Below, in pieces: positions 2,126 through 2,627 of a stretch of DNA of 37,270 nt. Where the stretch lies: the IMG/VR virus record IMGVR_UViG_3300001865_000265; one strand, 5' to 3'. The notes beneath the pieces were generated by a model. That model searched no databases and was not told the DNA's origin. It saw only the letters and a program-made list of their open reading frames with translations. Origin of the DNA: a virus. The translations under genes and the position numbers were made by a program. Each line of letters starts with the position of its first letter. Within the stretch, counting starts at the first letter, position 1.

Positions 2126-2627
2126 ATTGAAGTTTATGAATTGTGGGTACAGAACTTTAATGAAAATCGGCTAAGGGTTAGAACCTTCAGAAGGTGCAAA
2201 CCTAGAACAAAGAAATATTATTGTTCGTTGAAGCTCTTAAATGATTGGAAGGGTAGCTCTGAGAAATAAAGAGCTTGGTGAAAACAGAATGTGTCCAGCA
2301 AATGTGCAAAGTATAGCCCGGTGCAACAGGGGATACCATATCAGTTGCCGACCACGGCTGTTATTAATAAACAGTTACAGGCGATGGATCCAGGTTTAGA
2401 CTGGAAGATTAATATCGTTAGATTTGGAATTAGACCAAACGCTAAAACGAACATACTTTATTTTATTTTTCAGGGGATAGTTTAGAGAGTTGCATGATTA
2501 TTTCATGATAATAGCTGTTTTTTCCCAAAAAAATTATTATTAAACTCCTAAACCCCCACATGCTAAGAGGCCATTTCTATCTCTTAGTTATAAATTTATT
2601 AGCAGATGGATCCTTGGGATCCATTTG

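Follow-up and report, generated by a model that had tools for sequence, protein, structure and literature searches.

A covarying, U-tract-adjacent stem-loop family in the putative early leaders of Methanobacterium proviruses

U-tracts act as the signal for both termination and cleavage of transcripts in archaea, and to our knowledge almost nothing is known about how early transcription is organised in archaeal tailed viruses. In bacteria and their phages, transcripts can be stabilised by 5'-terminal stem-loops, as in the ompA 5' hairpin and the stabilisers of phage early mRNAs, and RNA can carry operators for proteins, for which T4 RegA and the MS2 coat protein hairpin are the models. tRNA-like structures offer a further kind of boundary: RNase P cleaves at them and in doing so makes the ends of other RNAs, and MALAT1/mascRNA and the plant mitochondrial t-elements are tRNA-like 3'-end processing signals (PMC4919922). 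According to the same article, which cites Hartmann et al. 1995, the C4 antisense RNA of P1 and P7 and the CI RNA of P4 are immunity-region RNAs that RNase P matures from a leader (PMC4919922). Our literature search found no structured RNA element described for methanogen viruses.

The locus analysed here lies near one end of a 37,270-nt stretch of DNA (IMG/VR record IMGVR_UViG_3300001865_000265; hereafter the window), which its gene content and relatives identify as a temperate tailed provirus of a Methanobacterium; relatives of its terminase and integrase are confined to Methanobacteriales viruses, for example psiM2, psiM100, PhiF3 and MSTV1. The features discussed below are collected in Table 1. 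The gene-free stretch between the operator boxes and the early genes has a G+C content of 36-44%, compared with 23-30% in the adjoining non-coding DNA, and the region of interest has the same sense strand as the early genes and the tRNA-like modules. We rejected protein coding for this region, as its open reading frames match no Pfam or PHROGs family, none of them is conserved or preceded by a ribosome-binding site, and the indels between relatives are not multiples of three. The + strand ORF at 1697-2113 (138 aa) was likewise rejected as a gene, being an antisense shadow of the divergent regulator gene; the same arrangement is seen in relative L010 (332-778 versus 400-636), where gene callers annotated the shadow ORF (148 aa). 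An attP site or scars of tRNA integration were rejected as well, the region being internal to the provirus and the integrase being flanked by host genes in L001, as were a CRISPR-like or tandem-repeat array, such repeats being absent, and a C/D-box sRNA on the - strand, for which the Rfam E value was 0.13 and the C box was not seen in L010. Further downstream, the first early ORF (3236-3448) of this AT-rich genome contains a run of ten G (3368-3377), which could be a site of slippage or phase variation or a place sensitive to assembly; L001 and L002 show no difference from the window in that stretch.

Table 1. Features of the integrase-proximal end of the window (positions are those of the window)
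Feature	Position	Strand	Content
Tyrosine integrase	1-1131		First gene of the window
67-aa gene			Between the integrase and the divergent regulator
86-aa divergent small regulator gene	1777-2037	-	
Operator boxes	2029-2125		TTGACAA
Promoter-proximal block	2129-2158	+	AT-rich TATA-like TTTATGAA at 2133-2140, then TTGTGGGTAC
Gene-free stretch	~2140-3235		Early genes, including the ERF recombinase, lie beyond on +
M0	2160-2204	+	First ~45 nt of the putative leader; overlapping hairpins ACCUU/AAGGU and AGGU-GCAA-ACCU (2192-2203)
M1	2205-2373	+	Lineage-specific middle of the leader
M1 stems		+	GAACAA/TTGTTC, AAGCTCTT/AAGAGCTT, GCAAC/GTTGC, CTGTT/AACAG
M2	2374-2460	+	Hairpin UCCAG/CUGGA (2389-2405); helix UCGUU/AACGA (2414-2451) around UUUGG/CCAAA
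U-tract	2461-2472	+	U5 at 2466-2470, plus CA, directly 5' of helix 1
Helix 1	2473-2557	+	GGGG, AUA bulge, 6-bp GUUUAG/CUAAAC, GAGUU/AACUC, variable branched interior, CCCC; then ACAU
Hairpin 2	2562-2589	+	GCUAAGAG [GCCAUUUCUAU] CUCUUAGU
AT-rich box	2590-2604	+	UAUAAAUUUAUUAG
Hairpin 3	2605-2625	+	GAUGGAUCC UUG GGAUCCAUU; ends 2 nt before tRNA-like module 1 (2628)

Relatives were obtained by several routes. A blastn search of 2100-3250 against 50,697 phage records gave no match, nor did DNA-pattern scans of IMG/VR or the metagenome scans, and no relatives emerged when IMG/VR was scanned with the regulator, integrase and 112-aa protein as anchors. Two hits were set aside, one (L009, reached through ERF in an IMG/VR scan) as an unrelated bacterial phage and the other (L013, a Limnochordia MAG from a pattern scan of genome contigs) as a chance match. 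Exact-protein look-ups yielded L001-L007. Over 1131-3450 these share at least 99.95% identity with the window, L003 having a single mismatch, and they are therefore uninformative for comparison. The homologues of the early 112-aa protein (L010, L011 and L012) were joined by the more distant L016, L017 and L018, obtained by profile search, and by L021, added from a scan of the genus Methanobacterium; L016 is the circular MAG of Methanobacterium sp. ERen5 (CP099988; PMC9584291). The order integrase, 67-68-aa gene, divergent small regulator, non-coding leader and early genes recurs in L010, L016 and L018, while L017 covers it from the regulator onward and L021 covers the leader and the downstream gene. 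MSTV1 (L014, PP537965) has a 725-nt gene-free gap at the equivalent position (2773-3497; z -2.9), flanked by a divergent DNA-binding protein gene upstream and by a second DNA-binding protein gene downstream, but this gap was rejected as an analogue, as it is very AT-rich and has neither a tRNA-like match nor a match to model R2. The published transcriptome analysis of MSTV1 only counted genes (PMC11375127).

A preliminary description of the window had proposed about 450 nt of continuous RNA-like secondary structure at 2170-2625, and each of the stems that it listed is present at its position. When compared with dinucleotide shuffles, the whole interval folded at -121.5 kcal/mol on the + strand (z -3.71) and at -105.9 kcal/mol on the - strand (z -3.01). 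This signal was unevenly distributed: 2466-2627 reached a z of -5.10 on + and -2.44 on -, whereas 2160-2472 (z -1.45 on +, -1.85 on -) lay at background, which across the first 9 kb amounts to a z of -0.67 +/- 1.19 per 200-nt window, several coding ones scoring between -2.5 and -3.0. A continuous 450-nt structure is therefore not supported, and the well-supported folded RNA is only the last third of the flagged 450 bases. The feature is smaller than first proposed, though better supported than the preliminary description could tell.

The gene-free, GC-enriched setting next to tRNA-like genes in a provirus, together with the overall z of -3.7, recalls GOLLD, which often lies near tRNAs and in prophages (PMC5737381), and the preliminary description had pointed to GOLLD and ROOL as counterparts. 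We regard the idea that the whole 450 nt forms one large ornate ncRNA of this type as largely refuted and highly improbable. In cmscan searches, GOLLD (RF01998) and ROOL (RF03087) were not listed for the window at gathering threshold or for 1900-3400 at E up to 10, nor for L010-L012 and L014 (E up to 1) or L016-L018 (E up to 0.1). The 5' 300 nt fold at background, the middle cannot be aligned in L010, and the distance from M0 to the next U-tract shrinks to only ~105 nt in L016 and L017; the conserved unit is a single stem-loop that is also found alone. No conserved multi-junction structure above 500 nt was seen, only helix 1 and hairpins 2 and 3 being conserved. The absence of an ordinary Rfam family did hold up: 2170-2625 gave nothing meaningful even at E up to 10, including no cloverleaf match (tRNA, RF00005), ARAGORN found no tRNA, and the sole tRNA match of Rfam in the window is the tRNA-like one at 2898-2964. 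No Rfam family except tRNA attains E = 0.1 in the region, so there is no match to a C4 antisense RNA or a phage-immunity RNA; Rfam presumably contains a C4 model.

Helix 1, which the preliminary description had listed as a bulged long-range helix (2473-2491/2543-2557), was borne out by covariation. Its general form consists on the 5' side of a U-run, (C/U/A)A, GGGG, a 3-nt bulge (AUA) and a 6-bp helix, followed by a variable interior of 40-90 nt and on the 3' side by the other strand of the 6 bp, CCCC and ANAU, giving a total length of ~70-130 nt (85 nt in the window). We found 13 copies on eight related Methanobacterium (pro)viral contigs, mostly metagenomic, usually with two copies per genome. 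Nine of the copies were aligned with MAFFT: every one of the 78 cells was paired, and all six inner-helix pairs showed double changes, the variants including GUUUAG/CUAAAC, UUCUGG/CCAGAA, UCAUAG/CUAUGA and UUAUAA/UUAUAA. None of 500 shuffles matched the observed pairing, double-change cells or covariation score, the other two measures being matched by 1 and 8 of the 500, and slid controls on the same alignment were 30-64% paired. Covariance model R3, which was built from these nine copies and scores the window copy at 86 bits, found four further copies outside its training set, and in these the closing helix departs compensatorily from GGGG/CCCC, to GAGG/CCUC in three and to GGUG/CACC in one. 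Across all 13 copies, in an alignment that is fitted to the covariance model and leans toward it, 118 of 118 cells were paired, compensatory changes occurred in 8 of the 10 pairs and 25 cells carried double changes; no shuffle matched the observed scores on four of the five measures. The members thus defined have a GRKG/CMYC closing helix, a 3-nt A-rich bulge and a 6-bp helix with covariation support, and the duplex energy of the helix 1 strands was -8.7 kcal/mol for cognate and -3.8 kcal/mol for non-cognate combinations.

The copies also carry information on the strand. Two of them have a G-U closing or outer pair that is compatible with the + strand only, and in every copy the + strand folds 6-14 kcal/mol better than the - strand (for example -34.5 versus -20.7 kcal/mol in L010 and -19.1 versus -11.4 kcal/mol in L018), which argues for an RNA read along the early genes and not for DNA dyads. 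The stems vary in sequence, whereas the AUA bulge and the CA...ANAU flanks keep theirs. By comparative analysis, helix 1 is shown to be a conserved RNA helix specific to the + strand, and it represents a previously uncatalogued family of U-tract-adjacent bulged stem-loops of Methanobacterium proviruses. A U-rich run lies within 12 nt upstream of helix 1 in most of the 13 copies, and we infer that the U-tract of the window is an archaeal terminator or cleavage signal. An intrinsic terminator of the bacterial type was rejected, since the order is reversed: in most copies helix 1 comes after the U-run, and on its 3' side it is flanked by ANAU(UUAA).

The two hairpins that follow helix 1 in the window behave similarly. 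Hairpin 2, listed earlier as the stem CTAAGAG/CTCTTAG, was supported by covariation: its stem is identical in the window, L010, L012 and L016 and differs by one compensatory pair in L011, and a second copy in L010 (2594-2620), between two early genes, has three compensatory pairs and keeps the loop GGCCGUUAUCUA. For the ATGGATCC hairpin at the 3' end of the stretch, it was the position that covariation bore out. L010, L011, L012 and L016 all have 6-7-bp hairpins at the hairpin 3 site with different stem sequences, L010 and L011 differ by three compensatory pairs, the loop NCGAUA is common to L010, L011 and L016, and the duplex energy was -9.0 kcal/mol for cognate versus -4.2 kcal/mol for non-cognate strands. 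Comparison of homologues thereby supports helix 1 and hairpins 2 and 3, while the 5' 300 nt yielded only short conserved blocks; the earlier preference for RNA over DNA operators is likewise upheld for the 3' 160 nt, by the compensatory changes and the + strand-only G-U pairs.

Between the two hairpins, the motif TAAAT(A/T)TATTAG is conserved in L010, L011, L016 and L021, and the AT box lies 26-46 nt before the following tRNA or tRNA-like element, a spacing that would fit an internal TATA box, for example for the tRNA mimic. If the box has this role, hairpin 3 would be largely untranscribed from it and could be a DNA operator. This touches on a broader alternative, namely that the inverted repeats act in DNA, as cruciforms or as operator or promoter elements for internal promoters of tRNAs or genes. 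In the window, hairpin 3 is indeed a perfect 9-bp palindrome with a 3-nt spacer, it sits between the TATA-like AT box and the tRNA mimic, and GGATCC occurs three times. We nevertheless consider a DNA function very unlikely, as the arms vary with complementarity kept and it is the loops that are conserved instead, the G-U pairs favour the + fold in every copy by the 6-14 kcal/mol given above, and the interior of helix 1 is too long for a protein-bound dyad.

The elements downstream of the module differ among relatives. Real tRNAs stand in the leaders of relatives where the window has anticodon-less mimics (tRNA-Trp(CCA) at 669-744 in L011 and tRNA-Thr(TGT) at 5485-5558 in L016), and the tRNA in the leader of L012 (272-379) has 45 nt inserted in its anticodon region. 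A 70-aa Cys-rich (zinc-ribbon-like) ORF takes the place of tRNA mimics 1-2 in the leaders of L010 (1276-1488) and L011 (257-469), which makes the leaders mosaic; a different 65-aa Cys-rich ORF (4995-5192) follows the module of L016. At 2968-3072 the window has a long hairpin (GGAACCUGUCA...UGACAGGUUCC) whose loop contains the conserved motif UUCCUCAGCCAA and which is followed by a U8-U9 run. Most relatives covering that part have it too, among them L010 (1640-1735), L016 (5560-5660) and L017 (850-935); it comes either right behind helix 1 or downstream of a tRNA or mimic.

Helix 1 itself sits between a U-rich run, in most copies, and the next gene or the hairpins leading to it, in three arrangements. 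In arrangement (a), a Shine-Dalgarno sequence and start codon follow ~8-15 nt downstream (L016 3769, L018 5182 and 5784, L017 927, L011 10). In arrangement (b), helix 1 is followed by hairpin 2, the AT box and hairpin 3, and then by a true tRNA (tRNA-Trp in L011, one with an intron in L012), by the tRNA mimic in the window, or by an ORF in L010 and L016. In arrangement (c), a long hairpin and a U-run lie downstream (L010 1528, L017 777). Helix 1 is therefore a modular leader element and not a large tRNA-associated ncRNA, since the conserved unit is a ~70-130-nt stem-loop that also occurs directly 5' of protein genes with no tRNA nearby; nor is the upstream module specific to tRNAs. The complete genome of the host Methanobacterium sp. 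ERen5 (G002) has just two matches, both in the provirus, and of 32 genomes scanned in the genus and 151 in the family, one other matched among those first-look candidates that were scored, a fraction of the total. As far as searched, the family is specific to a small lineage of Methanobacterium proviruses.

These positions bear on two further explanations. Helix 1 might be the operator of a viral or host RNA-binding protein that governs several early genes together at the level of translation or stability, as it ends 8-15 nt before the Shine-Dalgarno in five to six copies and its AUA bulge and CA...ANAU flanks are conserved while the stems vary. We judge this unlikely: what follows the other copies is a tRNA, a tRNA mimic or a terminator-like hairpin and not a ribosome-binding site, the association with the U-tract would go unexplained, and we identified no candidate binding protein. 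It is similarly improbable that helix 1 serves in antitermination as lambda nut or HK022 put do, with the nascent stem-loop, by itself or together with a viral protein, modifying RNA polymerase to read through the U-tract terminators of the early region. The roughly two copies per genome within the early transcription unit, the embedding among U-runs, and the invariant bulge and G-rich closing stem, which suggest a recognition surface, would all agree with such a role, but helix 1 stands after and not before its adjacent U-tract, several copies leave only ~10 nt to a ribosome-binding site, where no other U-run precedes the gene, and no N-like or Q-like protein was identified. We also know of no description of RNA-mediated antitermination of the nut/put kind in archaea, which counts against this explanation.

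The 5' part of the region presents a different picture. The sequence TTGTRGGTRC and the AT-rich DNA upstream of it are conserved in L010, L016, L018 and L021, and the flanking operator boxes differ; from its position, we infer an early rightward promoter in the promoter-proximal block, with the transcript starting near 2160. The operator boxes TTGACAA of the window have GTACA(T/C)GAGTACA as their counterpart in L010 (680-770), and the regulators have diverged too. Differing operators beside a conserved TTGTRGGTRC block look like swapped immunity specificities on a common promoter. M0 shares ~80% identity with L010 and can still be recognised in L016 and L017, and its GCAA hairpin still pairs in L010 through a U:A to G:C change, although with two to four sequences the support for M0 is weak; of the stems in the preliminary description, AGGT-GCAA-ACCT and TTTGG/CCAAA both gained weak comparative support, whereas CGAT/ATCG is broken in the one relative having it, L012. 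M1 cannot be aligned to L010 (~51% identity over all columns) and folds at background, and its stems are indistinguishable from chance because L010, the sole relative covering that part, offers no alignable counterpart.

M2 is 96% identical to L012 when gaps are ignored, compared with 77% for the adjacent protein gene, and the differences fall outside the predicted stems, save one change from U:A to U:G. Taken with the module anchors, identity is 95-97% versus 77% for the neighbouring gene, a conservation above that of coding DNA. The 3' part of M2 (AAAACGAACA and the U-run) recurs in L016 and L017. These two relatives also conserve a compact ~110-nt block (L016 3600-3710, L017 612-722), GAACCUUCUGGGGAGG...GGCGAUGGCAG...AAAACGAAACA, which ends in U7 and has both ends in common with M0 and M2 of the window; it may be a discrete leader sRNA. 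The window has one full copy of helix 1 and, in M1 at 2327-2335, an orphan CAGGGGATA without a CCCC partner, this 9-mer occurring exactly twice in the window against 0.18 expected. GATGGATCC likewise occurs exactly twice (2383-2391 and 2605-2613), with GAAGGATCC at the first of these sites in L012, and the self-complementary GGATCC lies at 2386, 2608 and 2617. The repeated GATGGATCC, GGATCC and CAGGGGATA hint that 2327-2470 may be a decayed duplicate of the 2471-2627 module.

Our preferred reading, to which we assign a probability of about one half, is that 2160-2627 is a modular non-coding leader of the early operon with a structured 3' module that acts at transcript boundaries. The leader would be read on the + strand from a repressor-controlled promoter, predicted near 2133-2160. 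Its first ~300 nt would comprise the short conserved blocks M0 and M2 and end in the U-tract, and its last ~160 nt would form the conserved structured RNA module with helix 1 as the core. The U-tract would be a site where archaeal transcripts terminate or are cut, and helix 1, starting 2 nt after it, would cap the 5' end of the downstream RNA or mark the boundary of a unit. Capping of this kind would protect the RNA of the next early gene, tRNA or mimic, whether it arises by read-through or by processing, and so allow its expression. A cut by RNase P at 2627/2628, for which its processing at tRNA-like structures is the precedent (PMC4919922), would release the leader with hairpin 3 protecting its 3' end.

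The placement of helix 1 points to a cis-acting boundary role, be it 5'-end protection or processing, control of read-through or service as a protein operator. Most simply, judging from sequence and position, it would be a 5' cap-like stabiliser or a processing mark for the downstream unit, and the function of the motif is probably boundary-related. U5-U9 runs inside the leader (2466, 2518, 3064 and 3184) could stop archaeal RNA polymerase, and the pieces may therefore be separate transcripts.

A bolder proposal, which we put forward tentatively as a possibility short of even odds, is that helix 1 and hairpins 2 and 3 constitute a new class of archaeal-virus cis-regulatory RNA that couples termination or cleavage at U-tracts to the next early gene, tRNA or mimic, with termination or cleavage proceeding via aCPSF1/FttA or an intrinsic route. 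If true, this would be an archaeal counterpart of the antitermination and mRNA-boundary elements of phages and the first described for any methanogen virus. Helix 1 offers a small, testable handle on the control of transcript boundaries in archaea, on the early programme behind lysis and lysogeny in methanogen viruses, and on why the same leaders bear tRNAs or anticodon-less tRNA mimics. The closed carrier genome of Methanobacterium sp. ERen5 provides a defined target for experiments and read mapping.

When set against known systems, the leader resembles GOLLD (RF01998) and ROOL (RF03087) in being non-coding, located in a prophage and adjacent to tRNA genes (PMC5737381); it differs in its archaeal host, in having no covariance-model match and in consisting of one stem-loop and two small hairpins, compared with their multi-junction fold of 500-800 nt. 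With the C4 and CI RNAs, it shares the position of a non-coding leader between an immunity promoter and early genes and the proposed cutting by tRNA-processing enzymes, but it has no Rfam family match, and no target sequences complementary to the leader were found; a role of the leader in immunity would be pure speculation by analogy. The likeness to lambda nut and HK022 put is positional only, both being cis-acting RNA stem-loops present twice per genome among the terminators of temperate-virus early transcripts, whereas there is no similarity in sequence or size, helix 1 comes after the nearest U-tract, the machinery is archaeal and no partner protein is known. As with MALAT1/mascRNA and the t-elements, the module ends 2-10 nt before a tRNA or mimic in the window, L011 and L012, and a predicted RNase P cut would form the 3' end of the upstream RNA, with hairpin 3 as its protector; unlike in MALAT1/mascRNA, that protector would be a simple hairpin and not a triple helix, and helix 1 also occurs with no tRNA-like neighbour. 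The 5'-terminal stabilisers of bacteria and phages differ from helix 1 in that the host here is an archaeon with other nucleases (aCPSF1/FttA and aRNase J) and U-tract termination, and in that helix 1 is much longer (70-130 nt), has a conserved bulge and flanks and also stands before tRNAs. What the two have in common is a stable stem-loop placed a few nucleotides from a potential cleavage or termination site and ahead of a ribosome-binding site, in the case of helix 1 repeated at several cistron boundaries.
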